Shown: positions 211 to 13,616 of the stretch, piece after piece
Numbering within the stretch: position 1 is the first letter of the stretch
How the letters are laid out: every line of letters begins with the position of its first letter
DNA from: Rhodothermales bacterium
GTDB lineage: Bacteria; Bacteroidota; Rhodothermia; Rhodothermales; Bin80
NCBI GenBank assembly: GCA_012271205.1
Contig: JAAXGT010000189.1
Location: forward strand, 1-14,160
Length of the DNA stretch: 14,160 nt
Direction of reading: 5' to 3'
The notes under the pieces: model-generated
What the model was told of the DNA's origin: nothing
Seen by the model: the letters and a program-made list of their open reading frames with translations, nothing else
Databases searched by the model: none
Position numbers and translations under genes: made by a program

Positions 211-268
211 CATCCCTTCCAAGGGATGCAGCCGCAGACATGATCTGCCTTTGGTCAGTCTGCGGCTG
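211..268 (-). terminator. Two consecutive hairpins at the 3' end of the flotillin transcript, followed by a T-rich tract
   Basis: Read on the minus strand, the first hairpin is a perfect 11-bp inverted repeat, CAGCCGCAGAC (229-239) with GTCTGCGGCTG (258-268). Its 18-nt loop contains the flotillin stop codon (255-257). The second hairpin is CATCCC-TTGGAA-GGGATG (228-211). It is followed by TTGATTTTC (210-202). Confidence 0.45.
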
Positions 269-1526
269 ACTGGTCGTCCTGACGGGCGGGCGACTCGTGG
301 GAGGCACGGCTGAGCATACCGGCAATGTCAATGCCTGTGGACGCCTTTAAGCTCTCCAGTAAGGCCGGCGTAGAACCGGCAATCTGATTGAATACGGAGG
401 GAACGCCAGCCCCCTGCCCACTGTCGACGACGGTTAGCTTGTCGATTTTGAGATGATCCACCGTTTGTACGACCTGCTTCAAAATGTCCGGCAACATCTG
501 TATCAGGAAGAGCCGTTCCGCGTTTGACCCGGCCTCCTGCCACAACGCCAACTTCTGACGCAAGACCTCAACTTCAGCCTGGCCATCTTCAAGAATCCGC
601 GCAGCATTGCCCTTGGCAATCTCCTCCTTCGCCTTCCGCTCGGCTTCTGCCGCCACTACCACATCAGCGCGCTGACGCTTCTCCGCAAGCTTGATCTCTT
701 CTAGGGCCAATTCCTGCCGCACTTGCGCTGCCGCCACTTCCGCGGCCACGTCAACGCGGGCCTCCTCAGCCGCACTCCTCGCCGCCAATTGTGCTTTTAG
801 AACGCGAAGGTCGTTTTCGGCCTGCTCAATGCTCTTGTCCGCCGCCGCCTCGGCCAGCCTCGCCTGCTCTTTTTTCTCGGCCTCCGCAATCCGGGCAGCC
901 GCAATAATATGGGCGGATTGCTGACGCCCGATTGCATCCAGATAACCCGCATCATCCTCCACACTCTGAATCTTCATCGTATCCAGTTGCAGACCCAGGT
1001 TGCTCAAGTCATGATCGGCCTCGGCCAACAACTCCTTGGCAAATTTGAGCCGATCTTCGTTCACCTCCTCGGGGGTAAGGGTCGCCAACACCCCCCGCAA
1101 GTTTCCCTCAAGCGTCTCCTTGGCGATAGTCTGGATTTCATCGCGGCCCTTGCCCAATAGCCGCTCAACCGCGTTGGCCAGTTCGGTCTCGTTTGACGCC
1201 ACCTTGACGTTGGCAATGGCCCGCACCGTCAGCGGTATACCCCCTTTCGAATAGGCGTTCTGTACCGTCAAATCAAGCGGAATTGTGTTCAGTTGAATGC
1301 GTTCAACCTGCTCCAAAATCGGAATCCGAAACCCCCGACCTCCCTTAATAACGCGGTACCCGACGGCCGAACCGTCCGAGAGCCGGCGTCTGCGCCCGCT
1401 GAATATCAACACCTCATTGGGCTGACAAATCTTGAGGTTGGCCCTTACAATACCCAGAATGGTGAAAATTGCAACGACAATAATGCCACCTATAAGAAGG
1501 CCGCCGGTTACCGGATCCGCTCCCAT
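255..1526 (-). CDS. Flotillin-like SPFH/band-7 membrane protein (YqiK/FloT family)
   Basis: 423-aa ORF with an N-terminal hydrophobic anchor (LLIGGIIVVAIFTILGIV). An SPFH-like core follows (IPLDLTVQNAYSKGGIPLTVRAIANVKV). The central coiled-coil segment is long and Ala/Glu/Lys/Arg-rich (AEAEKKEQARLAEAAADK...AEAERKAKEEIAKG), as is typical of flotillins. The ATG lies at 1526-1524. Confidence 0.85.
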   Translation of the reverse strand: MGADPVTGGLLIGGIIVVAIFTILGIVRANLKICQPNEVLIFSGRRRRLSDGSAVGYRVIKGGRGFRIPILEQVERIQLNTIPLDLTVQNAYSKGGIPLTVRAIANVKVASNETELANAVERLLGKGRDEIQTIAKETLEGNLRGVLATLTPEEVNEDRLKFAKELLAEADHDLSNLGLQLDTMKIQSVEDDAGYLDAIGRQQSAHIIAAARIAEAEKKEQARLAEAAADKSIEQAENDLRVLKAQLAARSAAEEARVDVAAEVAAAQVRQELALEEIKLAEKRQRADVVVAAEAERKAKEEIAKGNAARILEDGQAEVEVLRQKLALWQEAGSNAERLFLIQMLPDILKQVVQTVDHLKIDKLTVVDSGQGAGVPSVFNQIAGSTPALLESLKASTGIDIAGMLSRASHESPARQDDQSAAD

Positions 1527-1576
1527 GCTTTATGTGATAGATCTCATGCGGCCGCTGAGGCCATAGTTATTCAACT

Positions 1577-2140
1577 TCAGGTGGCGCTCACAACTTCTGC
1601 CACCGTGCCATCCATGCGTACTACCAAAACTTCATCTCCTGCTGCATACTCCCCCCCTTCTTCTTCGAATGCGCGAGCCGCAAGTTGCATTCGCTGACCC
1701 TTTGCAACGAGTGCGATCTTGCCGGTATCGGTTGTACCAAACGGTATGACCACCCGGGCGGCGCAGCCGCGCAAGTCGCTGGCCGTTACCTCACTGGAAA
1801 CGTGTTCGTAGCCTACGCGCTTGATCACGTAGTTGCCCCCCAGCCCGATCCCCCCGCCCAAAGTGAGCGAAATCAATAGCCTGGCCACCTCATTTACACC
1901 CGCCAGAGGCAAGAGCACGCCGCAAAGGCCGAAGAAGGCCGTAAACAGAAACACCGTCCGCAAGGACAAGAGGTCGACAAAGCCCGGCCCGGCACCGATT
2001 GCGGCATCCACATCCAGTTCTGCTTCCCAGTCCAAGTCCACATCCGCGTCGACATCTGCTTCATGGTCGCCAAATCCGAACACCGAAAGCAGCACGAATA
2101 CTCCGCCGACCACCAAGCTTATCCAGTAAAGCATCTCCAT
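1577..2140 (-). CDS. NfeD-like membrane protein (YqiJ/YuaF family), the partner of flotillin
   Basis: 187 aa. The N-terminal half is hydrophobic and multi-TM (ISLVVGGVFVLLSVFGF; FLFTAFFGLCGVLLPLAGV; LLISLTLGGGIGLGG). The C-terminal part is soluble, beta-rich and OB-fold-like (VVIPFGTTDTGKIALVAKGQRMQLAARA...GDEVLVVRMDGTVAEVV). It lies immediately upstream of the flotillin gene on the same strand. GGAG sits 4 nt before the ATG at 2140. Confidence 0.75.
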   Translation of the reverse strand: MEMLYWISLVVGGVFVLLSVFGFGDHEADVDADVDLDWEAELDVDAAIGAGPGFVDLLSLRTVFLFTAFFGLCGVLLPLAGVNEVARLLISLTLGGGIGLGGNYVIKRVGYEHVSSEVTASDLRGCAARVVIPFGTTDTGKIALVAKGQRMQLAARAFEEEGGEYAAGDEVLVVRMDGTVAEVVSAT

Positions 2141-2200
2141 GATCTCCGGCCGGAACGAACTGGCCCAGAATGTTAAAACTACAAAGAGAATTACAAAGTC

Positions 2201-2221
2201 GCTCCACTGGATTCGTGGAGC
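2201..2221 (-). terminator. Hairpin downstream of glnK, a candidate terminator for the amtB-glnK unit
   Basis: GCTCCAC-N7-GTGGAGC, a perfect 7-bp stem, lies 30 nt after the glnK stop. On the minus strand it is followed by GACTTTGTAATTCTCTTTGTAGTTTT, which is T-rich. Confidence 0.45.
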
Positions 2222-2251
2222 GGCCCTACAATGGCCTGGTGTGGATGTGTA

Positions 2252-2602
2252 TTACCGAACCGGCGTAACGGCGGCCCTGTCTTCTTCCTTTGTACGGACC
2301 CGGACTATGCGTTCGACCGGAAGAACAAAGATCTTGCCGTCGCCAACCTCACCCGTATATGCAGCCTCACAGATGGCTTTCACGGTTCGGTCCACGAATG
2401 GCTCCGATACTCCGATATCGAGCATGATCTTGTCGTGGAGTTCCATTTTGACCGTAGTCCCGCGGTAGGTCTCGACCTTTTCGACTTCGCCGCCATGTCC
2501 ACGAACGCGCGATACTGTAAGTCCGTAGACCTCAGCCGCGTACAGACCCCGCAGTACTTCGGGCAATCTGTCAGGGCGAATAATTGCTTTGACCAGTTTC
2601 AT
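2252..2602 (-). CDS. glnK: Nitrogen regulatory protein P-II (GlnK type, linked to amtB)
   Basis: 116 aa beginning MKLVKAIIRPDRLPEV. The T-loop region ETYRGTTV carries a conserved Tyr, and the C-terminus reads GDGKIFVLPVERIVRVRT. The start lies 22 nt downstream of the amtB stop on the same strand. Confidence 0.9.
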   Translation of the reverse strand: MKLVKAIIRPDRLPEVLRGLYAAEVYGLTVSRVRGHGGEVEKVETYRGTTVKMELHDKIMLDIGVSEPFVDRTVKAICEAAYTGEVGDGKIFVLPVERIVRVRTKEEDRAAVTPVR

Positions 2603-2624
2603 GAGAATGTGGTTTTCCGGGTTT

Positions 2625-3968
2625 TCAAGTGACGCTTATCAGACCATTGACGTGCTCCGGCGCCTCCTCGTCATTGAGTAGTACCGCTCCTTCGCCAGTT
2701 GCATACGCCTCTTCGCCGTGGGCTGAAATATCCATTCCAAGGCCCTCCGACTGAGCATCCGCCCGCAACGGTGCGAACAGGCCAATGAATTTCAGCAACA
2801 GGAACGTTACGATGCCGCTATACCCCGCAACGGCCAAGATTGACACGGCCTGAATGCCCACCTGCGCAGCGTTGCCGTCAATCATCCCTTCAGCGCCGCC
2901 AAATGCGACCGATGCAAACACGCCCGTCAGCAAGGCACCTGAGATGCCGCCCACGCCGTGCGCCGCAAAGACATCCAACGAGTCATCCAGCTTGGTACGC
3001 GTGCGCCAGCGGATGAGCAGGTAGCTGGGGAAAGCACTGATCAAGCCAAGCGCAATCGCGCCTGTGGGCGAAACAAAACCGGCAGCCGGCGTAATTGCAA
3101 CCAGGCCAACTACAATAGCCGTCGCCACGCCGACGGCCGTAATGCGTTTGGTAACGAAGTAATCCAGGAACACCCAGGCAACCAGGCAAGCGGCCGGTGC
3201 GAGCATCGTATTGACCAGTGCAAGCGCCGCAATGCCATCCGCCGCCAAGGCACTCCCCCCATTAAACCCGAACCAGCCGAACCACAAAATGCCAGCACCC
3301 AAAAGCACAAATGGTACGTTATGAGGGAGCAGCGCTTCGCGCCCGTAGTCCTTGCGCGCGCCCAAAACCAGCGCCGCCACCATAGCGGCTACGCCTGCAT
3401 TGACATGTACTACTGCCCCGCCAGCGAAGTCTAGAGCACCCATCTCACCAATCCAGCCGCCACCCCAGACCCAATGACACACTGGTGCATAGACAAGCAG
3501 CCCCCACAGTGCAATAAACGCCATGTAAGATGGAAACCGCATACGCTCAACCACGGCCCCACTGATCAGCGCGGCCGTGATGATGGCAAACGTTCCTTGG
3601 AACGCCATAAACAAAAGGCTAGGGATAGTGCCATTTGGCTCCAGTCCCACGCCTTTCAGGGCAGCCATGGAAAAGTCGCCGATCCAAGCACTGCCTTCGC
3701 CAAAAGCCAGCGAGTATCCCAACAGCGCCCACAAGGCCCCCGATACGCCTAGCGCGACAAAACTCATCATCATGGTATTCAGCGCATTCTTGGAGCGCAC
3801 CAAGCCGCCGTAGAAAAACGCCAGCGCCGGTGTCATTAGAAGCACCAGTGCCGTAGATACCAAAAGCCAGGCCGTGTCTGCCCCGCTGATGGCATCTGCT
3901 TCCTGTGCGAAGGCCGCTGGCACAAAAACCATGAGCACTGCCATGAAGCAAACGGTCCGTCGAAACAT
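2625..3968 (-). CDS. amtB: Ammonium transporter (Amt/AmtB family) with an N-terminal signal peptide
   Basis: Multi-TM protein with the Amt signatures DFAGGAVVHVNAGVAAMVAALVLGARK and FGFNGGSA. The ORF track starts it at a GTG at 3977. I prefer the ATG at 3968 (MFRRTVCFMAVLMVFVPAAFAQEA, a signal peptide). AAGGTGA precedes it with a 5-nt spacer. Confidence 0.9.
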   Translation of the reverse strand: MFRRTVCFMAVLMVFVPAAFAQEADAISGADTAWLLVSTALVLLMTPALAFFYGGLVRSKNALNTMMMSFVALGVSGALWALLGYSLAFGEGSAWIGDFSMAALKGVGLEPNGTIPSLLFMAFQGTFAIITAALISGAVVERMRFPSYMAFIALWGLLVYAPVCHWVWGGGWIGEMGALDFAGGAVVHVNAGVAAMVAALVLGARKDYGREALLPHNVPFVLLGAGILWFGWFGFNGGSALAADGIAALALVNTMLAPAACLVAWVFLDYFVTKRITAVGVATAIVVGLVAITPAAGFVSPTGAIALGLISAFPSYLLIRWRTRTKLDDSLDVFAAHGVGGISGALLTGVFASVAFGGAEGMIDGNAAQVGIQAVSILAVAGYSGIVTFLLLKFIGLFAPLRADAQSEGLGMDISAHGEEAYATGEGAVLLNDEEAPEHVNGLISVT

Positions 3969-3977
3969 GTGAGTCAC

Positions 3978-4207: not shown

Positions 4208-5668
4208 TCAGAGGGGGAGAAGCAGCGATATTTGATGGGTCCACACGCGTGCCCGGGCCACGTCGAGCGGACCAGCCGGCGCAACCACGAAGTTGGACGC
4301 GAATGCTGCCGCCGCATCCCGTACCCGCGACTGCGCAAGTCCGGGCCGTCCGGTTCCCCAGGTCATAATGATCAGATACCGCACCGTAAAGGTGTCGAAT
4401 GAGTACGCTGTGCCCGAAGTGAATGTCCATTCGCTCCAACTCTGATCAAGCGTGCGCTTGAATTGCTCGACATAATTCTCCTGCTTCAGTCTGTAACTGT
4501 AGAGGCGAAGGTTGAGGCCCGCGCCAATTTCCATGCGCTGCCCGCGCTGACGCAGCCCCATGCGAACATGGCCGTTTTGGAATCGAAAGAAGTTCTCCAC
4601 GGTCATGGCCCCCTTTGGAATTACGTTGTCAGAGTCAGCCAAGGGCGTATCCTCCAGCGCATTGGCCCATGTATGGCTCCAGATAGGCTCATAAACGGCA
4701 TCCAGCCCGTAAGTCGTGCGCCCGATAGTTCGTGCCACGCCGATACCAAGGTTGTACGCCTGGCTATTACCGGGGTCGCGCGGTATCTGCATCAAATCAT
4801 AGTTGGGAATCTTGGGATGACTCTTCCAATCGCCTACAAGGCGACCTCCCAAACGCCAGCCCTGCCCAACCGGATGCTCGTAGCCCGCGCGTAACGCCCA
4901 GCTGTGCGTCTGATCCTGCTCAAGCCGGATCCCCGTATCTAGGAACCAGGCCTCAGTGCTAAAAAATCCCTCCGTTAGGGTGTGGTCCATTTTGAACCGG
5001 TGGTAAGACAGAACCAGCTCAGCATGACGTCCGTCAATCCAGTCCTGGGCCACCCCCAAACGTATGTTCGTCATACGACCCTCCTGCTCCAGACCGGAAT
5101 TTTGCGCATATAAGAGCTGAACCCCCTCGAGACCATTCAGCCAGCCTGAGAACACGCTCACCCCTACCGACATTCGCGTGTTGGGTATGACCCGACCCGC
5201 CATGACATAGGAGTACAGATTGTGGATCGATAGTGAGCTTGCTTCAGGAGGGCGCGTGGTCACAAACGAGGCATTAAAAAAAGTGCAACAAGACACCGCT
5301 GTGCGCTTGCTCATTTCCTGCCAAGCCAGACTTGCGGTGCCAAACCAGCTGCCACGGCGCAACATAATGCTCAGTGGCAACGAGCGGGCCGAACTCGACT
5401 GACTGCCAATCGTCTCTCCTATTTTATAAAAGTGAGGCGTGACCGCCACATGTGCCCCCTTTATTGAGGAGCCTCTGGCCGGATTGCTGTATGCATCATG
5501 CCACACATCCCGTAGCGCGATGTTCACCCCGCCCAATGCCGCATTCTCAGATGGAAAAAGCAGAAACTGTGTTCCGGTTGCAACCGGAATGGATTTGACC
5601 GGAATCTCCTGAGCATGAGCTGCCGCGGACCATAACAACAGGAAGACGACCCAATGGTGTGGCTTCAC
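4208..5668 (-). CDS. Secreted beta-rich protein with a signal peptide, a putative outer-membrane beta-barrel/porin-like protein
   Basis: The long ORF (4208-5740) is rich in Gly/Tyr/Trp/Asn/Ser/Thr with alternating hydrophobic residues (YNLGIGVARTI, LNLRLYSYRL, WTFTSGTAYSF). The preferred start is GTG at 5668, preceded by AGGAGG with a 6-nt spacer. This gives VKPHHWVVFLLLWSAAAHA-QE, a classic signal peptide. The alternative ATG at 5740 directly abuts the pfk stop (TGAATG) but adds a 24-aa Arg/Cys-rich extension. The C-terminus (...HQISLLLPL) is not a typical barrel terminus, so the family is uncertain. Confidence 0.55.
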   Translation of the reverse strand: MKPHHWVVFLLLWSAAAHAQEIPVKSIPVATGTQFLLFPSENAALGGVNIALRDVWHDAYSNPARGSSIKGAHVAVTPHFYKIGETIGSQSSSARSLPLSIMLRRGSWFGTASLAWQEMSKRTAVSCCTFFNASFVTTRPPEASSLSIHNLYSYVMAGRVIPNTRMSVGVSVFSGWLNGLEGVQLLYAQNSGLEQEGRMTNIRLGVAQDWIDGRHAELVLSYHRFKMDHTLTEGFFSTEAWFLDTGIRLEQDQTHSWALRAGYEHPVGQGWRLGGRLVGDWKSHPKIPNYDLMQIPRDPGNSQAYNLGIGVARTIGRTTYGLDAVYEPIWSHTWANALEDTPLADSDNVIPKGAMTVENFFRFQNGHVRMGLRQRGQRMEIGAGLNLRLYSYRLKQENYVEQFKRTLDQSWSEWTFTSGTAYSFDTFTVRYLIIMTWGTGRPGLAQSRVRDAAAAFASNFVVAPAGPLDVARARVWTHQISLLLPL

Positions 5669-5740
5669 GATGCACCTCCTTCTATAGCTGCATACATGAG
5701 AGGTACAACGGCGAAAGTACGGGCACCCAATGGATTGCAT

Positions 5741-6934
5741 TCAATCGGCGTTCATGATAAAGAGGGGGGCGTTGTTCAGATCCTTGAAATTCGGTCTCAA
5801 GCGCTCCCTGTTGTAGAACTTATCTACGTCCACGACTTTGTGCGGCCCGTTGATAACCTCCATCGAAATGCTGCCATACACACCGTTGCGGATATTGACC
5901 AGCCGACCCGAAGTCCCCTCAAGGATGAGATCCAAAGCCAGGTTGCCGAACGCCATCGGGACGACACAGTCGAGCGCGTCAGGTGCCCCGCATCGCACGA
6001 GGTAGCCGAGCCGCTGATTGATTACGTTGATTCGTCGCCCCGCGTTGTACTTGGGTGACAAACGCTTGAGCTCATCGCCTACGCGCCTGCCGATGCCACC
6101 CAGTTTGGCATGCCCATATTGGTCTTTCTCTGTTTCTAAAAAGGACATGCTATCGTCACCCCGGATCTTGGCCCCCTCGGACACCAGGACTACCGAATAG
6201 CTGCTTGGATGCCGATTGCGATCATACACCAAGAGGTCCGTCAATTGCTCAATATCAAAATCCAACTCTGGAATGACGCATCGGTCAGCCGCGCCTGCCA
6301 TCGTGGGCAGGAGCGCCGAATACCCTGCATAGCGACCGAAGACCTCTATAACCAGGAACCGTTCATGCGATCCGGCTGACGTGCGCAGGGTGTGGGCCAG
6401 TTCTATAGTCCGTGAAACGCAGGTGCCAAAGCCGATGCAGTAATCGGTACCGGGTACGTCATTGTCCATCGTCTTCGGAATGGCCACGACTTTCACACCT
6501 TCCTTGTGTAGCCGGTAGCCGTAGCTAAGCGTGTCGTCGCCACCGATAGGAACCAAAAAGTCCAACCCGAGCCACTCGATGTTTTTGAGCACCTGAGGTG
6601 TCACATCGTTGATTTCATCTTGATAGCTCCCACGCAGGTGGACCGGCAGATTCGGCCTGGGTAAATGGCTCGGTCGCGTGCGTGAACTGTGCAGGAAGGT
6701 TCCGCCGGTGCGACCGGCCGGATTTACGATCTCTTCGCTGAGCACGTGGAAGTTGCCGCTGTTGTCCGCCTCCCTGTCTTGAACAAGATCCACCAGCCCC
6801 GCCCAACCCCGCTTGATCCCGATCACCCGATACCCTTCACGAATCGCTCGAATGGTCACGGCTCGAATGGCCGGATTGAGTCCCGGAACGTCACCACCGC
6901 CCGTCAAAATTCCAATGGTTCCCTTGTTTGCCAT
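5741..6934 (-). CDS. pfk: 6-phosphofructokinase with a pyrophosphate-dependent-type active-site signature
   Basis: 397 aa beginning MANKGTIGILTGGGDVPGLNPAIRAV (PFK N-terminus). The motifs are GGDDT (not GGDGS) and PKTMDNDV (not PGTIDND). This Asp/Lys pair is the established signature distinguishing PPi-PFKs from ATP-PFKs. Confidence 0.85.
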   Translation of the reverse strand: MANKGTIGILTGGGDVPGLNPAIRAVTIRAIREGYRVIGIKRGWAGLVDLVQDREADNSGNFHVLSEEIVNPAGRTGGTFLHSSRTRPSHLPRPNLPVHLRGSYQDEINDVTPQVLKNIEWLGLDFLVPIGGDDTLSYGYRLHKEGVKVVAIPKTMDNDVPGTDYCIGFGTCVSRTIELAHTLRTSAGSHERFLVIEVFGRYAGYSALLPTMAGAADRCVIPELDFDIEQLTDLLVYDRNRHPSSYSVVLVSEGAKIRGDDSMSFLETEKDQYGHAKLGGIGRRVGDELKRLSPKYNAGRRINVINQRLGYLVRCGAPDALDCVVPMAFGNLALDLILEGTSGRLVNIRNGVYGSISMEVINGPHKVVDVDKFYNRERLRPNFKDLNNAPLFIMNAD

Positions 6935-7032
6935 CTCAGTGCGTAAGTCCGTACAATTGATTTTGCTGGTTGCGCAAACTACGACAGGAGGGTCAAACCG
7001 GCTATGTGTCTACAGTTATGATTACACAGGCT

Positions 7033-7060
7033 GGAATGCATCGCTACCTCTTATCGTCTA
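7033..7060 (+). promoter_or_regulatory. Candidate ECF-sigma-type promoter upstream of the first LTXXQ gene
   Basis: GGAAT (7033-7037), then 17 nt, then CGTCTAA (7055-7061). This resembles the ECF AAC-N16/17-CGT architecture. The predicted TSS is about 45 nt upstream of the ATG at 7115. Confidence 0.3.
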
Positions 7061-7114
7061 ATGGGTACATCGGACTGGCGAGAAACTCAACCACTTTCAC
7101 ACTACTCAGAAACC

Positions 7115-7501
7115 ATGCGCATCAAGTTTGCCATTCTTGTACTAATGGCCTGCACCCTCATGACCGGGACCACATTCGCCCAGCGCGGACAACGCAGCGA
7201 TATGGCGGCCCTGTATAAAGCAGAAACCGACTCCCTCATTGCCCGACTCGCATTGGAAGAGGAGCAGGTTGAAGCCGTGCAAGCAGTTTTACAATCACGC
7301 TTCGACAAGCTCACAAAACTGCGACCAGTGCCCGGAGGCGGTCGTGAACAGTTCGAGGCCATACGATCCCAGATGCAAGAAATTGAAAAAGAAACAGTGG
7401 CTGCTTTGACTCCCCTGCTCTCTGAGGCCCAGATGGAGACCTATCAGGAATTCATGGCCGAGCGGCAAGAGATGCGTCGGGCCCGCCGAGGCCGTCAGTG
7501 A
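7115..7501 (+). CDS. Small periplasmic LTXXQ/CpxP-Spy-like protein (paralog 1)
   Basis: The start is taken at the internal ATG at 7115 because it yields the signal peptide MRIKFAILVLMACTLMTGTTFA-QRG. The mature protein (~105 aa) is all-helical, Glu/Gln/Arg-rich, and carries an LTP..SEAQMETYQEF block with an Arg-rich tail (RRARRGRQ). The upstream residues of the 7061 ORF (MGTSDWRETQPLSHYSET) do not look like protein. Confidence 0.6.
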   Translation: MRIKFAILVLMACTLMTGTTFAQRGQRSDMAALYKAETDSLIARLALEEEQVEAVQAVLQSRFDKLTKLRPVPGGGREQFEAIRSQMQEIEKETVAALTPLLSEAQMETYQEFMAERQEMRRARRGRQ

Positions 7502-7504
7502 CGA

Positions 7505-7531
7505 CCGTGCGGCGGCCGTCAGGAAGCACGG
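7505..7531 (+). other. GC-rich hairpin between the LTXXQ gene and the sigma gene, a possible attenuator or terminator without a U-tract
   Basis: CCGTGC-N15-GCACGG lies 4 nt after the stop. A direct repeat GGCCGTCAG occurs at 7489-7497 and 7513-7521. No T-run follows. Confidence 0.3.
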
Positions 7532-7630
7532 TGAAAGGGCCTCGTTTGGCATGGCGCATATGCGATCGGACGGGATGCATTACACTTGTATCAAGATGGA
7601 AAAGGGAGTGCGATTCCTACCAGTGTACTC

Positions 7631-8254
7631 ATGTCGTCATTGGCCATTGTAGCGCCCCATTGCACAACGTCGCGGCTGCAGAGATACGCTTTGAAATCGC
7701 CGACGGATGAATTGCTGGTCACGCGTGCCAAAGAAGGTGACCGTAACGCGTTCCGGATGCTGGTGGTGCGACATCAGCAGGGTATTGCCCGTACGGTTGC
7801 CAGTATGCTGGGCCCTGTCGTGGAGGTGGATGATGTGGTACAGGAAGTCTTTATACGGTTTTACCAAACGCTTGCGCGATTTCGCGGGGATGCCGCATGC
7901 AGAACGTACCTCAAACGAATTGCCATCAACCTGTCACTGGACACACTACGGCGACGCAAACGGCTCGCAAGTCGCTTTGTGAGCCGGGACAATGAAAGCA
8001 TGTATGTGCCGGAAGCGAGAGACGAGAGTGCCGATCCGGAAGGGTTTGACCGCAGGCGTCTTTTGGAGCAGGCGCTCGCATCGTTGCGTCCGCATCACCG
8101 CGCCGTCGTGGTGTTGCGCCTGATTGACGGCTACTCCACCAAAGAGGCAGCTGAGATTCTTGGCGTGCCCTCCGGTACTGTGCTCTCGAGACTCAGCCGG
8201 GCCGTACAACATTTGCGATCGATTCTAGGACCGATTCTGGAGTATGAGGCGTAA
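7631..8254 (+). CDS. ECF-family RNA polymerase sigma factor (sigma-70 regions 2 and 4)
   Basis: Region 2 is DELLVTRAKEGDRNAFRMLVVRHQQGIARTVASML...VQEVFIRFYQ. The region-4 HTH is LRLIDGYSTKEAAEILGVPSGTVLSRLSRA. The start is ambiguous. The ORF track uses TTG at 7586, I annotate the only ATG at 7631, and TTG at 7691 would give the usual short N-terminus (MKSPTDELLV). Confidence 0.85.
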   Translation: MSSLAIVAPHCTTSRLQRYALKSPTDELLVTRAKEGDRNAFRMLVVRHQQGIARTVASMLGPVVEVDDVVQEVFIRFYQTLARFRGDAACRTYLKRIAINLSLDTLRRRKRLASRFVSRDNESMYVPEARDESADPEGFDRRRLLEQALASLRPHHRAVVVLRLIDGYSTKEAAEILGVPSGTVLSRLSRAVQHLRSILGPILEYEA

Positions 8255-8274
8255 TATTGAATACTGAAACAATC

Positions 8275-8646
8275 ATGAAACAGGTTACCATGCATCGACT
8301 CGAGGCCACACCGCAGGACGCAGCCCTGTGCAGCCTCCTCCGAGAAAGCGCGGAAGCTTCAGCTGAGCACGCCATGCAGCCGTTTGTCGCGGACCGCGTC
8401 ATGCGGCGAATTGCCCAATTGACCCGCTCCGAAGAAGTGTTTCAGGCGGCACTATGGCGTTTTTTTCGGCCAGTCGCGCTTGCGGGCTTCATCTTAGTGC
8501 TGGCTTTTGTGGGATACAACTCCACCATAAGTCGCACTTATGAAGTGCCACCGACGACTACGGAATTGGTGCTTGGATTGCAGCCCGTAACCCTTACGAC
8601 CGCCTACAGTGCGGATTTCTACCCGATTCTGGCAGCAGGGCCATGA
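8275..8646 (+). CDS. Putative single-pass anti-sigma factor
   Basis: It begins 3-21 nt after the sigma stop (TTG at 8257 or ATG at 8275). A cytoplasmic N-domain of about 75 aa precedes one TM helix (VALAGFILVLAFVGY) and a periplasmic tail of about 40 aa. There is no HxxxCxxC zinc motif. The call rests on position and topology. Confidence 0.5.
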   Translation: MKQVTMHRLEATPQDAALCSLLRESAEASAEHAMQPFVADRVMRRIAQLTRSEEVFQAALWRFFRPVALAGFILVLAFVGYNSTISRTYEVPPTTTELVLGLQPVTLTTAYSADFYPILAAGP

Positions 8647-9062
8647 ACGCACGCTTGAAATCAGTATTGCTTCTGGTGGGCGTACTCATAGTGGGGTTAG
8701 CGCTAGGCACATTCGGGACAAGCGCACTCCAGCACAGGCGAATGGCAGCCTTGCAAGAAGCACGCAGGGAAGGCGGTCTTATGCAGCGGTTGGAACGCGT
8801 GATCGAATTTGAAAACGAGAGCCAGCGAGAGGAGATTGAAGACATTGTGCTCCGTGCGGAAACCAATTTCCGCACCATTCAGCGTTCGTGCGGGGACAGC
8901 CTCAGTGTGTACCGCGAGGCATTCTTGGCAGACCTTAAAGAGGTACTCACTCCTGACCAGCACGCACAGGTCGAAACATGGCTGCAAAGGGATCGGGAGC
9001 TTCGCTCACACCGGCGTGGGCGATCAGCTGATCCACGAACCCGGAGCCGCGAGCGCCCCTGA
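8643..9062 (+). CDS. Membrane-anchored LTXXQ/CpxP-Spy-like periplasmic protein (paralog 2)
   Basis: Its ATG overlaps the anti-sigma stop (ATGA). An N-terminal anchor (LKSVLLLVGVLIVGLALGTF) precedes a helical, Glu/Arg-rich domain with an exact LTXXQ motif (LTPDQHAQVETWLQRD) and an Arg-rich tail (RSHRRGRSADPRTRSRERP). The LTP..AQ.ET(W/Y) block is shared with the 7115 gene. Confidence 0.6.
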   Translation: MNARLKSVLLLVGVLIVGLALGTFGTSALQHRRMAALQEARREGGLMQRLERVIEFENESQREEIEDIVLRAETNFRTIQRSCGDSLSVYREAFLADLKEVLTPDQHAQVETWLQRDRELRSHRRGRSADPRTRSRERP

Positions 9063-9090
9063 TATCTATTCCTGAATCTCTATAGACTGA

Positions 9091-10368
9091 ATGACCCGAT
9101 TTCTGCTGATCACCGGCGTGGTGGTGCTCGCCGGCGCTTCCGTTTGGTACCTAAACCGGGATGGCGATGAGACCATTAGTCCTTACCGCTTTGTAACGTT
9201 GGAGCAGGGCGATCTTGAGGCAGTCGTTGCAAGTACTGGCGCGCTGGATGCTGTCACCACCGTACAGGTGGGCACCCAAGTGTCCGGAATAATCTCACAC
9301 ATCTATGTTGACTTTAATGACAAGGTACGTGCCGGCCAGATCATCGCCCGCATAGATACGACCCTGTTGCGAAGCGCTGTACGGGATGCGGAAGCTGCCG
9401 TTGAACGAAACCAGGCGCAACTTCGTCAGGCAGAGCGAGAACTCAAGAGACTGGAGAGTCTTTATGAGAAGCAATTTGTCACGGAAGTGGACTATAACCG
9501 TGCACAATACGATCTCGACATTGCCATCGCCTCTACAAAAAGTGCGGAAATCAGCTTGGAGCGCGCGCGTCAGAACATGAGTTACGCAACCATATACGCG
9601 CCGATTTCCGGTACAGTAATCGAGCGCAACGTGGATGTGGGGCAGACGGTAGCGGCCAGCTTTTCTGCGCCGCAGCTGTTTTTGATCGCGGACGACCTGT
9701 CTCGCATGGAGATCCTGGCCTCTGTGGACGAGAGTGATATCGGGCAAATAAAGCAGGGGCAGGTTGCCCGGTTTAATGTGCAGGCCTACCCCGATGAAAT
9801 CTTCTACGGGGGGGTGCGTCAGGTGCGTCTCCAGTCCACCATGGAAGAAAACGTTGTCAACTACACTGTGGTAGTGGATGTAGAGAATCCGGACGGGCGG
9901 CTGCTTCCTGGAATGACGGCCACCGTGGACTTTTTGATCGAGACCGCTTCTGACGTGCTCAAGGTTTCCAATGCGGCCATGCGGTTTCGGGCTACGCCGC
10001 GGATGTTTGAAACATTACGAGCCCAAATGGAAGCCCGGTGGGCCGCAAGCGGGGATTCCACCCGTGATGGCAGATCCGGCAGAGGAGGAGCGATCCCCAG
10101 CGGGTCCGCAAATAACAGCTTCGGCGGCGGACAGGGTTTTGGCGGCGGGGGCGACGATTTCGTCCTGATCTGGTACTTGGAAGAAGATGGCAATCTCATG
10201 ACAGTGCCGGCCCACACAGGCATTACAGACGGGCAAATGACCGAGATCATCAGCGACCGGCTCGAGCCCGGAATGCAGATTATCGCGGGTGTCACGGAGA
10301 TGGCGGAGGATGGCGTGGCCAATCCGTTTCAGAACAACCAGCGGGGCTTCCGGCCCGGCGGTTTTTAG
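9091..10368 (+). CDS. Periplasmic adaptor / membrane-fusion protein (HlyD/MacA family)
   Basis: An N-terminal TM anchor precedes a long coiled-coil hairpin (RDAEAAVERNQAQLRQAERELKRLESLYEK...SLERARQNM). A lipoyl/beta-barrel domain follows (YATIYAPISGTVIERNVDVGQTV). A Gly-rich insert (SFGGGQGFGGGGDD) lies before the C-terminal membrane-proximal domain. Confidence 0.85.
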   Translation: MTRFLLITGVVVLAGASVWYLNRDGDETISPYRFVTLEQGDLEAVVASTGALDAVTTVQVGTQVSGIISHIYVDFNDKVRAGQIIARIDTTLLRSAVRDAEAAVERNQAQLRQAERELKRLESLYEKQFVTEVDYNRAQYDLDIAIASTKSAEISLERARQNMSYATIYAPISGTVIERNVDVGQTVAASFSAPQLFLIADDLSRMEILASVDESDIGQIKQGQVARFNVQAYPDEIFYGGVRQVRLQSTMEENVVNYTVVVDVENPDGRLLPGMTATVDFLIETASDVLKVSNAAMRFRATPRMFETLRAQMEARWAASGDSTRDGRSGRGGAIPSGSANNSFGGGQGFGGGGDDFVLIWYLEEDGNLMTVPAHTGITDGQMTEIISDRLEPGMQIIAGVTEMAEDGVANPFQNNQRGFRPGGF

Positions 10369-11135
10369 TGCGGATGGACCGTAAAGTTGTGATGCGCACG
10401 GAGGGTGTGCGCAAGACTTATGTCATGGGCAAGACCCAGGTTCATGCGCTTCGGGGCATTGACCTAACCGTACACCAAGGCGAAATGCTCGCCATTGTGG
10501 GGGCCTCCGGCTCTGGCAAGTCCACGCTGATGAACATCATCGGGTGCCTCGATTACCCTACGGCAGGCACATACATCCTCGATGATGTGCGCGTGGACCG
10601 CATGTCACGCAATATGCTCGCCAATATCCGCAACCAGAAAATCGGATTTGTCTTCCAGGGATTTAATCTGCTCGCCCGCACAAGCGCGCTGGAAAACGTC
10701 GAACTCCCCCTGCTTTACGATAGATCTGGCCGCAAACTGCCAGTTCGCACGATGGCAAAAGAGGCCTTAGAGCGCGTCGGTCTGGCAGACCGCATGGACC
10801 ATGAACCCAACGAGCTGTCCGGTGGGCAGCAGCAACGCGTAGCCATTGCCCGCGCATTGGTGTCTTCGCCGGCCATTCTACTGGCGGACGAGCCTACGGG
10901 CAACTTGGACAGTCGCACCTCCGTCGAGGTCTTGGCGCTGTTCCAAGAACTGCACGCACAAGGCATGACCGTACTCGTGGTCACTCACGAGAAGGATGTG
11001 GCCACGTGTGCCGAACGCATAATTGAATTGCGAGACGGGCGCATCATTCGTGACGAAAGGATTTCCCATCGGCGCTCCGCCGCACATGATTTGCAGCTGT
11101 TGCCTGAATCTCCGGTGACCGCTGAAGCCGCCTAA
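10368..11135 (+). CDS. ABC transporter ATP-binding protein (MacB/LolD/YknY type)
   Basis: Walker A is GASGSGKST, the signature is [15 protein letters not shown], Walker B is [12 protein letters not shown] and the H-loop is VVTHE. The GTG start overlaps the adaptor stop by 1 nt. ATG at 10374 or 10392 are alternatives. Confidence 0.9.
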
Positions 11136-11150
11136 GCCGTAACCAGTGAC

Positions 11151-12368
11151 ATGAAATCTTCCACTCTGATCAAGGTCGCGTCCCAGAGCATCCTGAAGAA
11201 CAAGATGCGCACGCTTTTGACCATGCTTGGTATTGTCATTGGTGTCGGGGCCGTCATTGTAATGGTTGCCATCGGCCAGGGTGCCCACTCTCAAATTCAG
11301 AAGCAGATCAATAATCTGGGTACCAACCTGATCATAATCACCCCCGGTGCGAGCAGCCAGGGAGGGGTGAGCCGGGGTGCCCAGAGTTATAATCGGCTCA
11401 CGGTCAAGGATGTCGAGAAGATCAAGCGAGAGAGCCTGATTGTGTCCGCTGTATCGCCGGTTGTTTTTACGCGCACACAGATCATTGGCGGGCAGGGTAA
11501 CTGGCGCGCAACCGTCAACGGTGTTTCTACTGATTTCCCGATCATCCGCAACTGGGACCTGAAGTACGGGCGTTTTTTTGACCAGAGTGACGTGCGTCAG
11601 ATGCGCCGCGTAGTCGTGCTGGGTCACACCGTCGCTGAGGAACTGTTTCCGGGTGAAGATCCGGTCGGTACAACCGTACAAGTGCGCACGGTGCCGGCTG
11701 ACGTTATTGGCGTCCTTGAACCGAAGGGGCAGACTGCAGATGGAACCGACCAGGACGACGTGATCCTGATGCCCTACACCACGGTACAGACCCGGTTGAG
11801 CGGCTGGAGTCGCATCTTTCAGATTCTGGCCAGCACGCCCTCATCGCGCGACATCCCGGCTGCACAAGCCGAGATTGCCGCGATAATGCGCGAATCCCAC
11901 GGCCTATCCCAGTGGGAGGACGATGACTTTACCGTGCGCAACCAGAATGATCTGGCGGAGGCGGCGCAGGGAACTACGGAAATCATGACGTTGCTTCTGG
12001 CCGCTATTGCCTCGATTTCGCTATTGGTCGGGGGAATCGGAATTATGAACATCATGCTGGTTTCAGTAACCGAGCGCACGCGGGAAATTGGTATTCGCAT
12101 GGCCATTGGGGCGCGTGGGCGGGATGTGCTCACTCAGTTTTTGGTTGAGAGCATCGTGATGAGCGTGTTGGGGGGCATGATCGGAATCGGCATCGGTTTT
12201 GCCGGCTCTTCGGTACTGGGCCAGGTAACTGGCTGGCATACTGTGATTTCGCCGACGACCGTTATGATTGCGCTAGGTTTCTCGGCTGCTGTAGGCATCT
12301 TCTTTGGATTCTATCCGGCCCGAAAGGCCGCAGCCCTGAATCCAATTGATGCACTCCGTTACGAGTAA
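11151..12368 (+). CDS. ABC transporter permease with a MacB-like periplasmic domain plus an FtsX 4-TM domain (YknZ/MacB type)
   Basis: An N-terminal TM (LLTMLGIVIGVGAVIVMVAI) precedes a periplasmic domain of about 230 aa. The C-terminal FtsX-like block is LLAAIASISLLVGGIGIMNIMLVSVTERTREIGIRMAIGA. The start lies 15 nt after the ATPase stop. Confidence 0.85.
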   Translation: MKSSTLIKVASQSILKNKMRTLLTMLGIVIGVGAVIVMVAIGQGAHSQIQKQINNLGTNLIIITPGASSQGGVSRGAQSYNRLTVKDVEKIKRESLIVSAVSPVVFTRTQIIGGQGNWRATVNGVSTDFPIIRNWDLKYGRFFDQSDVRQMRRVVVLGHTVAEELFPGEDPVGTTVQVRTVPADVIGVLEPKGQTADGTDQDDVILMPYTTVQTRLSGWSRIFQILASTPSSRDIPAAQAEIAAIMRESHGLSQWEDDDFTVRNQNDLAEAAQGTTEIMTLLLAAIASISLLVGGIGIMNIMLVSVTERTREIGIRMAIGARGRDVLTQFLVESIVMSVLGGMIGIGIGFAGSSVLGQVTGWHTVISPTTVMIALGFSAAVGIFFGFYPARKAAALNPIDALRYE

Positions 12369-12404
12369 TGCAGCCACGATCCAAGGAGGAATTCCCACCC
12401 TCTC

Positions 12405-12432
12405 ACCCATCCACCAAGTCGGCTGGATGGGT
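12405..12432 (+). terminator. Perfect 9-bp stem hairpin after the exporter operon
   Basis: ACCCATCCA-N10-TGGATGGGT lies 37 nt after the permease stop. No strong T-tract follows (TACAAAGCTGG). Confidence 0.4.
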
Positions 12433-12540
12433 TACAAAGCTGGTGATTCTGAAAGAGGAAATCATTGTGGCGTTGAAGTTCTTATCCGTTCCACACCTCG
12501 AGTATCGTGAGGCCCGCATTGCATGGTTGCAGGCGATCAT

Positions 12541-12972
12541 ATGAACACGTCGGCGATGGTCCGCGTGCTGGTCTTGGCCATCCTAATTTTCAGTATGATT
12601 GGTACTGGAGCAGAACTCGCACTGCTGGGTCACTATGAAGACTTTTGGCAATGGGCCCCGATCGTGTTGCTTTTCTTTGGATTCGTCGCAACCGTTTGGA
12701 ACGCTGCCAGCCCATCACGTGCCGGAAGGCGCACTCTGTTTGCTGTGATGTCCTTGTTCGTGGTTGCGGGCCTAGTTGGTCTTGGACTTCACTTTAATGG
12801 CAATCTCGAATTCGAACGTGAAATGTACCCGAGTCTGGCTGGATGGCCTCTGATTTGGAAAGCGCTGCGAGGCGCCACCCCGGCCCTTGCGCCGGGGACC
12901 ATGGTCTATATCGGACTGTTGGGCCTGCTTGCCTGGTACATTTCTCCATCCCAAACCTCCACACCATCATGA
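12541..12972 (+). CDS. Small integral membrane protein of unknown function, about 4 TM helices
   Basis: Four hydrophobic segments are present (VLVLAILIFSMIGTGAELALL; WAPIVLLFFGFVATVW; LFAVMSLFVVAGLVGLGL; MVYIGLLGLLAWYI). The start is ATG at 12541, or ATG at 12523 as in the ORF track. Its stop overlaps the next gene's ATG (ATGA at 12969-12972). Confidence 0.5.
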   Translation: MNTSAMVRVLVLAILIFSMIGTGAELALLGHYEDFWQWAPIVLLFFGFVATVWNAASPSRAGRRTLFAVMSLFVVAGLVGLGLHFNGNLEFEREMYPSLAGWPLIWKALRGATPALAPGTMVYIGLLGLLAWYISPSQTSTPS

Positions 12973-13616
12973 AATCGTTTACGTCCTTGCTCTTGACCGC
13001 ATTGCTCTTTGCGGGTGTCAGTGTGTGCTTTCAGCCTGATGCCTATGCCCAAGACACGGAAGCGGAAAGCGCCAATCTTGTGAATCCGAATCTGGCCACG
13101 GCAGACGAACTCAGTGCCGCGCTGGAAAACGAAGATTTATCCGCTGCCTTGATGGGGCAGCGCCCTTTCCTAAGCCTGACAACCTTGCATGCTGCGCTGG
13201 CCGAAGCCTTGGGAGCGGAAGGTACAGAGGGAGCCTTGAGCAAGATCACCGTACGAATTAATCTGAATACAGCTTCGCGCGAGGAGATTCTTCTGATTCC
13301 AGGGGTGGGTAACCGGATGGCGCATGAATTCGAAGAGTACCGGCCCTATGTGGCCATGGCCCAATTCCGGCGCGAGATTGGCAAGTATGTCGATGACGAC
13401 GAAGTCGATCGTCTGGCAGCCTACGTGTTTGTGCCGGCAAACCTGAACAGCGCCACAGACGAGGAGATTCTTGCGATCCCGGGTGTGGGACGCCGGATGC
13501 TTCACGAGTTCAAGGAGTATCGGCCCTATGTGGATATCGCCCAGTTCCGGCGCGAAATCGGCAAGTATGTTGATGACGATGAACTAGCGCGTCTTGAGCG
13601 CTTCGTTACGCTGTAA
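12969..13616 (+). CDS. Secreted/periplasmic protein with tandem ComEA-like helix-hairpin-helix modules
   Basis: The internal ATG at 12969 gives the signal peptide MKSFTSLLLTALLFAGVSVCFQPDAYA-QD. The upstream part of the 12843 ORF overlaps the previous gene out of frame. Two repeats of about 61 aa match the ComEA HhH pattern (INLNTASREEILLIPGVGNRMAHEFEEYRPYV... and NLNSATDEEILAIPGVGRRMLHEFKEYRPYV...). A third, degenerate copy lies N-terminal to them (NPNLATADELSAAL). Confidence 0.65.
   Translation: MKSFTSLLLTALLFAGVSVCFQPDAYAQDTEAESANLVNPNLATADELSAALENEDLSAALMGQRPFLSLTTLHAALAEALGAEGTEGALSKITVRINLNTASREEILLIPGVGNRMAHEFEEYRPYVAMAQFRREIGKYVDDDEVDRLAAYVFVPANLNSATDEEILAIPGVGRRMLHEFKEYRPYVDIAQFRREIGKYVDDDELARLERFVTL
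13258..13616 (+). repeat. Intragenic tandem duplication of the HhH module, period 183 nt and visible at DNA level
   Basis: Segments 13258-13440 and 13441-13616 share long identical runs (gaggagattctt, cggccctatgtgg, ttccggcgcga, ggcaagtatgt, gatgacga) in the same order and phase. Confidence 0.7.

Follow-up and report, generated by a model that had tools for sequence, protein, structure and literature searches.

A candidate one-promoter operon that joins a widespread ECF sigma, short anti-sigma, and tethered Spy-like triad to a second Spy-like gene and a MacAB-type pump

We analyzed a 14,160-bp stretch of DNA from a Rhodothermales bacterium (the whole of contig JAAXGT010000189.1; hereafter the window), concentrating on a block at positions 7033-12432 of the plus strand. 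The block holds the gene of a sigma factor of the extracytoplasmic function (ECF) type, the gene of a putative anti-sigma factor, genes for two small proteins (g1 and g4) that are very probably distant members of the LTXXQ/Spy-like superfamily, and three genes for an ATP-binding cassette (ABC) exporter with its membrane-fusion protein (MFP). The features of the block are as follows.

7033-7061, plus strand: ECF-type promoter GGAATGCATCGCTACCTCTTATCGTCTAA, with a -35 element GGAAT, a 17-nt spacer, and a -10 element CGTCTAA
7115-7501, plus strand: g1, 128 aa, predicted to be secreted, probable remote LTXXQ/Spy-like protein
7631-8254, plus strand: ECF sigma factor, 207 aa, Sigma70_r2 and Sigma70_r4_2 domains
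8275-8646, plus strand: putative single-pass anti-sigma factor, 123 aa
8643-9062, plus strand: g4, 139 aa, predicted to be membrane-tethered, probable LTXXQ/Spy-like protein
9091-10368, plus strand: MFP, a periplasmic adaptor of the MacA/YknX type, HlyD_D23 domain
10368-11135, plus strand: ABC ATPase of the MacB/LolD/FtsE type, ABC_tran domain, GTG start
11151-12368, plus strand: MacB-type (type VII ABC) permease, MacB_PCD and FtsX domains, with a large periplasmic domain
12405-12432, plus strand: hairpin after the permease stop, without a U-tract, a weak candidate for the end of the operon

The sequence-only reading of this DNA had described seven co-directional genes, which is the layout we find between 7115 and 12368, and its gene order and five domain assignments are correct. 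When the open reading frames (ORFs) of the block are scanned with profile hidden Markov models (HMMs), the sigma factor, the MFP, the ATPase, and the permease match Pfam, and g1, the anti-sigma, and g4 match no Pfam model. Two of the overlaps reported earlier are present, the 4-nt ATGA at 8643-8646 that serves as anti-sigma stop and g4 start, and the 1-nt overlap TAG/GTG at 10366-10370 where the MFP stop meets the ATPase start. The third, said to be of 15 nt, is instead a 15-nt spacer (11136-11150) from the ATPase stop to the permease ATG. We place the start of g1 at the ATG at 7115, not at 7061, because the -10 element of the promoter overlaps the latter; the 128-aa product is the product on record. 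Longer spacers lie between g1 and sigma (129 nt), between g4 and the MFP (28 nt), and after the permease (154 nt). The block starts at the first base of the promoter (7033) and ends with a modest hairpin (12432; fold -26 kcal/mol, z -1.57). This hairpin is not conserved, being absent from the related loci L002 and L010 (L numbers denote the loci compared), in which the next gene abuts the permease. No terminator-like site was found between the genes, as the matches all lie inside coding sequence, and the 129-nt spacer between g1 and sigma shows no structured element or attenuator (fold z +0.64).

The sigma factor matches Sigma70_r2 (56.1 bits) and Sigma70_r4_2 (54.9 bits) in Pfam with no region 3 match, and in NCBIfam it scores 100.5 bits against TIGR02937 (cut-off 42.9) and reaches no equivalog cut-off. 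Its domain content, sigma-2 and sigma-4 domains only, with neither region 3 nor region 1.1, is that of the ECF (group 4) sigma factors, and so is its setting next to a regulator at +1, here a conserved single-pass protein, and behind a group-specific promoter that it would be expected to recognize. Orthologues in other phyla are 43-54% identical, and the best matches in named genomes reach 50-54%. In the lineage of the window, which includes L001, L002, and L010, the sigma factor also has a conserved N-terminal extension of ~23 aa (7631-7700) that has no counterpart in other phyla. The extension co-occurs with the lack, in the anti-sigma of the same lineage (8275-8330), of the N-terminal 'LLYRSFDxxLsxxE' helix seen in its relatives.

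The 123-aa protein encoded at +1 is a putative anti-sigma factor. It has one hydrophobic span (residues 63-81 of 123), with ~62 residues before it and a tail of ~42 residues after it, so that the earlier count of about 40 periplasmic residues agrees with the predicted topology; a single transmembrane (TM) helix, as predicted here, is a feature of class I anti-sigma factors. Across phyla, the family found at +1 shares the motif QPFxADRVMxRI, an FRP-TM segment, and a tail of uniformly ~30-45 residues with the short motif ..LGhPxhTLExhY, which in the window takes the conserved form ..LGLxPVTL..AY. The protein is 75-78% identical in L001 and L002, and is thus better conserved than g1 or g4. Its relatives give matches below threshold to zf-HC2 (18.4 bits versus 22.2) and RseA_N (E 0.025), the latter model reaching threshold in neither the window protein nor the relatives examined, and their N-terminal helix, which the window lineage lacks, resembles a zinc-less class I anti-sigma domain.

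The two small proteins differ in how they are likely to be delivered to the periplasm. The g1 product starts with a signal peptide, MRIKFAILVLMACTLMTGTTFAQ, that ends in FAQ, and carries the degenerate LxxxQ motifs LEEEQ and LSEAQ and an Arg-rich tail. In g4, an N-terminal TM anchor is followed by a helical domain with the motifs FENESQ (degenerate) and LTPDQ (exact) and again by an Arg-rich tail. The charge flanking the anchor in the g4 family (a net +3.0 over 7 residues on its N side and +1.65 over 15 residues on its C side) favors an N-in/C-out orientation, which would place the g4 domain, like g1, in the periplasm. Aligned directly by BLASTP, g1 and g4 give a weak C-terminal alignment (E=0.025 over 33 aa). 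Word-indexed homologue searches with g1 and g4 returned the query itself and one relative only, and the g4 family was gathered by exhaustive profile search, which yielded 511 representatives at 50% identity (E<=1e-3) with a common layout of N-terminal anchor, IEPxDxxQR, long helical stretch, LTPEQ, and basic low-complexity tail. At this profile level, an alignment of g1 matches the g4 family end to end (hhalign probability 96.4%, E 1.4e-9), with the g1 signal peptide opposite the g4 anchor.

Several profile and structure comparisons point from this family to LTXXQ proteins and Spy. Pfam matches at E<0.01 occur in part of an 85-sequence set of the g4 family (LTXXQ in 12/85, Metal_resist in 9/85), and the g4 consensus scores 22.8 bits against Metal_resist and 18.4 bits against LTXXQ, both under the cut-off. 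Proteins of L028, L003, L005, L007, and L040 score above the LTXXQ/Metal_resist cut-offs, among them the positional equivalent of g1 in L028, which passes both. The g4-family profile recovers LTXXQ-annotated proteins among 5.8 billion sequences (E 8e-7 to 6e-4), and against the PDB it matches Spy (3oeo) at E 5e-3 and at E 1e-3, the latter as the top match; STV and, weakly, CpxP also appear, interspersed with amphipathic helices of the apolipoprotein type. Four helices make up the AF2 model of g1 (pLDDT 79.6), and its best Foldseek match in the PDB is Salmonella STV (5io8/5ihf; probability 0.97-1.0, TM 0.51-0.55, E 0.12-0.5), in which the stretch aligned to g1 carries an LTPEQ motif. The g4 model is all-helical (pLDDT 70). 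The small helical periplasmic proteins CpxP and Spy of E. coli (PF07813) have LTXXQ-type motifs, to which the partly degenerate motifs of g1 and g4 may correspond. From these alignments, we regard g1 and g4 as very probable remote homologues, one secreted and one tethered, within the LTXXQ/Spy-like superfamily. The earlier suggestion that they are LTXXQ paralogs thus stands as a relationship between profiles and does not extend to Pfam matches of their own.

We then asked how far the order of these genes is conserved. Close to the window, the full seven-gene order recurs in L002 and L010, the contig of L001 shows it from g1 up to its own end at the beginning of the MFP gene, and L009 retains the junction of g4 with the MFP gene; g4 identity ranges over 41-62% in the four loci. 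L002 and L010 are not independent evidence, because their flanking genes are also shared. Farther away, g4 homologues on metagenome contigs (L003, L005, and L007) are in every case preceded by the gene of an ECF sigma and that of a small single-pass protein, at identities to the window of 43-45% for sigma, 20-27% for the anti-sigma, and 23-24% for g4. A scan with the sigma alignment, using one genome per species, gave 80 loci, whose ORFs we surveyed with HMMs. The sigma is at least ~39% identical in 34 of these loci, 33 of them assessable, and a g4 gene lies within ~0.5 kb downstream of sigma in 30/33; it was found in 0/46 loci with more distant sigmas. An HMM-detectable anti-sigma lies between sigma and g4 in 27/30, and L017 also has such a gene on inspection. 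The gap between anti-sigma and g4 is at most 16 nt in 31/34 loci, and 11/34 have the 4-nt ATGA overlap. Host labels of the triad span Bacteroidota, KSB1, Calditrichota, Acidobacteriota/Aminicenantes, Zixibacteria, Eisenbacteria, Gemmatimonadota, Verrucomicrobiota, and Rhodothermales, and the triad is present in the Bacteroidales genomes L017, L039, and L042. The conserved and widespread unit is therefore a triad of ECF sigma, short anti-sigma, and tethered LTXXQ protein.

In the three remaining assessable loci (3/33: L013, L016 of Roseithermus, and L029), the sigma clade has swapped its input module and is paired with a large receptor gene and an anti-sigma that is of the FecR type (L016 and L029) or comparable to it in length (L013). 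These loci lie at 7509-11199 in L013, 7613-10019 in L016, and 7536-11354 in L029; their sigmas are 48-53% identical to that of the window, the receptor-like gene encodes 409-940 aa, and FecR/FecR_C domains are found in L016 and L029.

The promoter at 7033-7061 occurs as a single copy in the window, against 0.01 expected by chance, and it is conserved upstream of g1 in L001, L002, and L010. No second ECF promoter was found ahead of sigma or of the pump genes in the window. Of the 37 non-duplicate triad loci, 26 carry the motif GGAAT-N16-19-GTCTA immediately before sigma or before a g1-like gene that itself precedes sigma, and several more loci have variants with one mismatch. Its consensus, GGAAT(A/G)-N17/18-(T/C)GTCTAA, is RpoE-like. 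Counts of the strict motif are 44 in 0.93 Mb of triad loci and 9 in 1.21 Mb of non-triad loci. As the window lineage has no copy of the motif before sigma or the pump, the simplest reading is that all seven genes form one sigma-dependent operon, with co-transcription suggested by the gene layout and the promoter. The description of the block as a self-contained unit is borne out by this single conserved ECF promoter ahead of g1. A sigma-70-like match, TTGCCA-18-TACAAT (10/12), lies ~75 nt upstream of the ECF promoter (6928-6957, plus strand). It is possibly a basal promoter of the operon, although such matches are expected by chance at this rate.

The last three genes of the block encode a pump of the MacAB type, with a MacB permease and an ABC ATPase from separate genes and a MacA-type adaptor. 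The MFP scores 90.5 bits against HlyD_D23 (Pfam) and 182 bits against TIGR01730 (cut-off 94.9); it matches the MacA model PRK11578 at E 5e-43, under the cut-off of that model, and its orthologue in L002 carries Beta-barrel_YknX. For the ATPase (ABC_tran, 114.6 bits), the best NCBIfam match is the ATPase part of MacB (E 1e-78), and LolD matches at E 1.5e-69. The permease matches MacB_PCD (181.6 bits), FtsX (65.7 bits), and the permease part of MacB PRK10535 (E 9e-83). In the MFP, a Gly/Ser-rich low-complexity insert, GRSGRGGAIPSGSANNSFGGGQGFGGGGDD, precedes the last domain (10060-10150, residues ~325-352).

An adaptor together with a MacB-type (type VII) ABC exporter is the composition of MacAB-TolC and of YknWXYZ, the latter under the control of the ECF sigma factor sigma-W in B. 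subtilis. The earlier comparison with yknXYZ holds for the adaptor-ATPase-permease order and the split of ATPase and permease. It does not hold for YknW, as no YknW-like gene is present and g4 takes that position, nor for the setting, since the pump genes here lie inside the predicted operon of the sigma itself and relatives carry a TolC-type gene. In L027 and L031, this OEP gene lies between g4 and the MFP (E 1e-58 to 5e-61). The block of the window has no TolC-like gene, as stated before; a Pfam scan finds no OEP/TolC domain in the block or in the four neighboring window ORFs scanned. The host is probably diderm, unlike the monoderm host of YknWXYZ: g1 starts with a signal peptide, TolC/OEP genes occur in the operon at distant triad loci of other phyla, and a TolC-type partner is therefore expected.

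The closest experimental precedent for the triad architecture is CirY/CirZ of Phocaeicola vulgatus (2026), in which the genes of an ECF sigma and an anti-sigma, together with a Spy-like gene transcribed with them, are induced >130-fold in colitis, deletion of cirZ lifts repression from cirY, spy, and two genes downstream, and the same genome holds a second paralogous sigma/anti-sigma/spy trio (PMC13114119). The match considered here is one of architecture: both have a sigma, an anti-sigma, and a Spy-like gene directly downstream, with apparent autoregulation. The CirY regulon differs from the window in its two putative peptidoglycan-binding/hydrolase genes and in having neither a MacAB pump nor an upstream second Spy-like gene, and the paper describes no membrane tethering or sensing role for Spy (PMC13114119). 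With the triad widespread and the CirYZ-Spy architecture already described, the view that the combination could not be placed in a described family no longer applies.

Some classified ECF groups also resemble the window. According to PMC7826278, ECF281 and ECF290 have a Metal_resist protein at +2, with anti-sigmas that are zinc-finger (ECF281) or RskA-like (ECF290), and in ECF241 a two-TM fused membrane protein, sometimes matching PF13801, lies beside sigmas mainly from Bacteroidetes. Like ECF281 and ECF290, the window encodes its putative anti-sigma at +1 and, at +2, a protein that resembles PF13801; its short single-pass anti-sigma without a Pfam match sets it apart from all three groups. 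A later paper that cites the original ECF classification gives the Bacteroidetes RpoE-like group ECF03 as lacking a recognized anti-sigma (PMC7406223).

Our reading, to which we give a probability of about 0.6, is that the block is a positively autoregulated ECF-sigma envelope-stress operon with a single promoter at 7033-7061. At rest, sigma would be held at the membrane by the anti-sigma. Envelope stress, most likely an unfolded or foreign periplasmic polypeptide rather than a metal, would inactivate the anti-sigma, and the freed sigma would transcribe the entire operon. The operon would then provide a periplasmic holdase-type chaperone (g1 and g4) together with the pump, whose substrate would be the offending compound, expelled from the periplasm or the outer leaflet through a TolC-type channel encoded elsewhere. 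The anti-sigma and g4 would be re-made in a fixed ratio, which would shut the response off.

In this scheme, g4 is likely to be part of the switch, by analogy with two known systems. CpxP and Spy are induced by envelope stress, and CpxP acts as an inhibitor of its sensor that stress removes by titration or degradation. The RpoE operon is autoregulated, and RseB is encoded right after RseA and modulates it. The tethered g4 could likewise bind the ~40-residue anti-sigma tail and be titrated away by its clients, as CpxP is from CpxA. The fixed position of g4 at +2, its frequent translational coupling, and its tethering beside a short conserved tail fit a stoichiometric partner that guards the tail (CpxP-CpxA / RseB-RseA analogy). 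The window shares with RpoE-RseA-RseB an RpoE-like promoter (GGAA..N16-17..TCTAA), a single-pass anti-sigma, and a partner gene right after that of the anti-sigma. Neither analogy is complete: compared with CpxP-CpxA, the partner here is an ECF anti-sigma and not a histidine kinase, g4 would be permanently tethered, the first motif is degenerate, and the similarity lies below Pfam thresholds; RseB is a lipid-/LPS-binding beta protein unrelated to LTXXQ, and the periplasmic domain of RseA is much larger. The wider proposal is a tentative one: stress sensing in a large ECF family would fall to a tethered Spy/CpxP-like subunit, which would clamp the ~40-residue tail of a minimal anti-sigma until unfolded or foreign polypeptides in the periplasm titrate it off, and in the lineage of the window this switch would be wired to a soluble chaperone and the MacAB pump as a detect-hold-expel module.

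Several points weigh against this reading. The anti-sigma of the window has no Pfam, NCBIfam, or PDB sequence match, and its putative assignment draws on position, topology, and sub-threshold matches of its relatives to anti-sigma domains. Neither g1 nor g4 has a Pfam match at E<=1 or an NCBIfam or PDB sequence match, fold searches with the g4 model gave non-specific matches, and Foldseek retrieved Spy and CpxP themselves with neither model. The contact between g4 and the anti-sigma is drawn by analogy, and the 129-nt and 154-nt gaps before sigma and after the permease could hide other signals. The P. vulgatus regulon was dispensable under the inducing condition (PMC13114119). Finally, MacAB accompanies the triad in only 3/30 distant genomes in addition to the lineage of the window, namely L027 and L040, with the motif before the pump, and L031, with a one-mismatch variant. 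The MacAB link is thus a lineage-specific minority addition that recurs, and not a defining part of the triad; of the linkage proposed earlier, the triad order is retained (30/33) and the pump is not a constant member.

The alternative that survives best is that g1 and g4 are pure outputs, with the anchor of g4 serving solely to retain its chaperone activity near the membrane and with sensing performed by the anti-sigma tail and envelope proteases in the style of RseA/DegS/RseP. The conserved tail motif could be a protease site, other LTXXQ genes in triad loci have their own promoter copy, which marks them as outputs, and P. vulgatus spy is described as a regulon member with no sensing role reported (PMC13114119). 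Against this, g4 is fixed at +2 and often translationally coupled across at least eight phyla, as expected of a stoichiometric partner, whereas the soluble LTXXQ paralogues are placed variably, and tethering would co-localize g4 with the anti-sigma. We consider pure-output proteins possible, if doubtful.

The same proteins might instead bind metal, as CnrX or ZraP do, in a metal-sensing or metal-resistance module whose pump exports a metal or chelate. Members of the g4 family and regulon partners do match Pfam Metal_resist, and ECF groups with Metal_resist at +2 have been linked to heavy-metal stress (PMC7826278). Yet the 85-sequence g4 family has no conserved His, Cys, Met, Asp, or Glu column, its conserved positions being only the TM glycines, R33, Q61, L98, L102, and Q106, and mature g1 has no His and no Cys. 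The lack of any conserved metal-ligand residue makes a role in metal handling unlikely; we rejected the metal-sensor reading on this ground, and the metal-defence part of the module first proposed is likewise unlikely. The pump, moreover, is of the MacB type and not a CzcCBA system or P-type ATPase, and neither the zinc-finger (ECF281) nor the RskA (ECF290) type of anti-sigma was found here. We judge such a module improbable.

MacB-type permeases serve as sensors in Bce-like systems, and the pump genes here are part of the predicted sigma operon, so that the transporter could in principle act as a BceAB-like flux sensor that signals to the anti-sigma with g4 as coupling subunit. Elsewhere, however, MacAB genes come with a sigma-type promoter of their own, which is what one expects of an output, and 27/30 distant triad loci have no MacAB nearby, from which it follows that the switch works without a pump; flux sensing is accordingly very improbable. 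That the genes are merely adjacent and independently expressed, as the 129-nt and 28-nt spacers might allow, is the least credible explanation, given the order conserved at 41-62% g4 identity (L001, L002, and L010, and the g4-MFP junction in L009), the single ECF promoter, the same promoter before MacAB in unrelated phyla, and the lack of an intergenic terminator-like site.

What is new in the window is the arrangement, in which one promoter would serve the ECF/anti-sigma/tethered-Spy switch, a further Spy-like gene, and a MacAB pump together. The underlying envelope-stress switch is widespread and little studied, and is not a new kind of system. ECF sigmas of Bacteroidota and allied phyla are numerous, and most lack a recognized anti-sigma or signal. 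Our analysis defines a triad family, including a minimal anti-sigma that Pfam does not see, with its promoter motif and recurrent outputs; it links a periplasmic chaperone family to ECF signaling and type VII ABC export, and it sets the recently found CirYZ-Spy system of Phocaeicola in a broad comparative context. Should the tethered protein turn out to be the sensor, CpxP-style titration would have a second, independent use in envelope-stress signaling, and a CpxP-like sensor that works by chaperone titration would serve ECF signaling across the FCB group, Acidobacteriota, and allied phyla. The window offers a compact seven-gene, one-promoter version that is suited to reconstitution.

Beyond the copies that precede sigma in the triad loci, the motif recurs at further genes in several loci:

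L027 (Zixibacteria): extra copy before a TolC(OEP)-MFP-ABC-permease operon
L031 (Eisenbacteria): one-mismatch variant before TolC-MacAB
L040: extra copy before a divergent LTXXQ-MFP-ABC-permease operon, whose LTXXQ protein scores 27.9 bits, above the cut-off
L028 and L038: copies before g1-like genes ahead of sigma
L005, L007, and L026: copies before Metal_resist or LTXXQ genes

From these extra copies, we conclude that periplasmic proteins of the LTXXQ type make up the recurrent regulon, joined by a MacAB(-TolC) pump in a minority of lineages. In L005 (5165-6145 and 10095-11753) and L007 (9181-10116), the copies lie before longer, repeat-containing Metal_resist proteins, and in L005 a copy is also found before a g1-like gene that has an ABC ATPase gene behind it; these copies hint at further regulon members that vary by lineage.

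Downstream of the permease, the window encodes a 149-aa membrane protein (12523-12972) and a secreted protein in which two helix-hairpin-helix (ComEA-like) repeats stand in tandem (12972-13616). Both genes abut the permease in L002 and L010 (20-nt overlap or 15-nt gap) and may be co-transcribed with it there. They are syntenic within the lineage of the window only and do not lie beside MacAB in L027, L031, or L040. Upstream of the block, the minus strand holds a flotillin (Band_7) and NfeD-like pair and a P-II and ammonium-transporter pair (255-3977), both syntenic in L002 and L010. A 510-aa ORF without a Pfam match (4208-5740, minus strand) lies between the gene of a pyrophosphate (PPi)-type phosphofructokinase and the Amt/P-II pair; it is conserved in L002 (489 aa, no Pfam match), and L010 has two shorter genes in its place.

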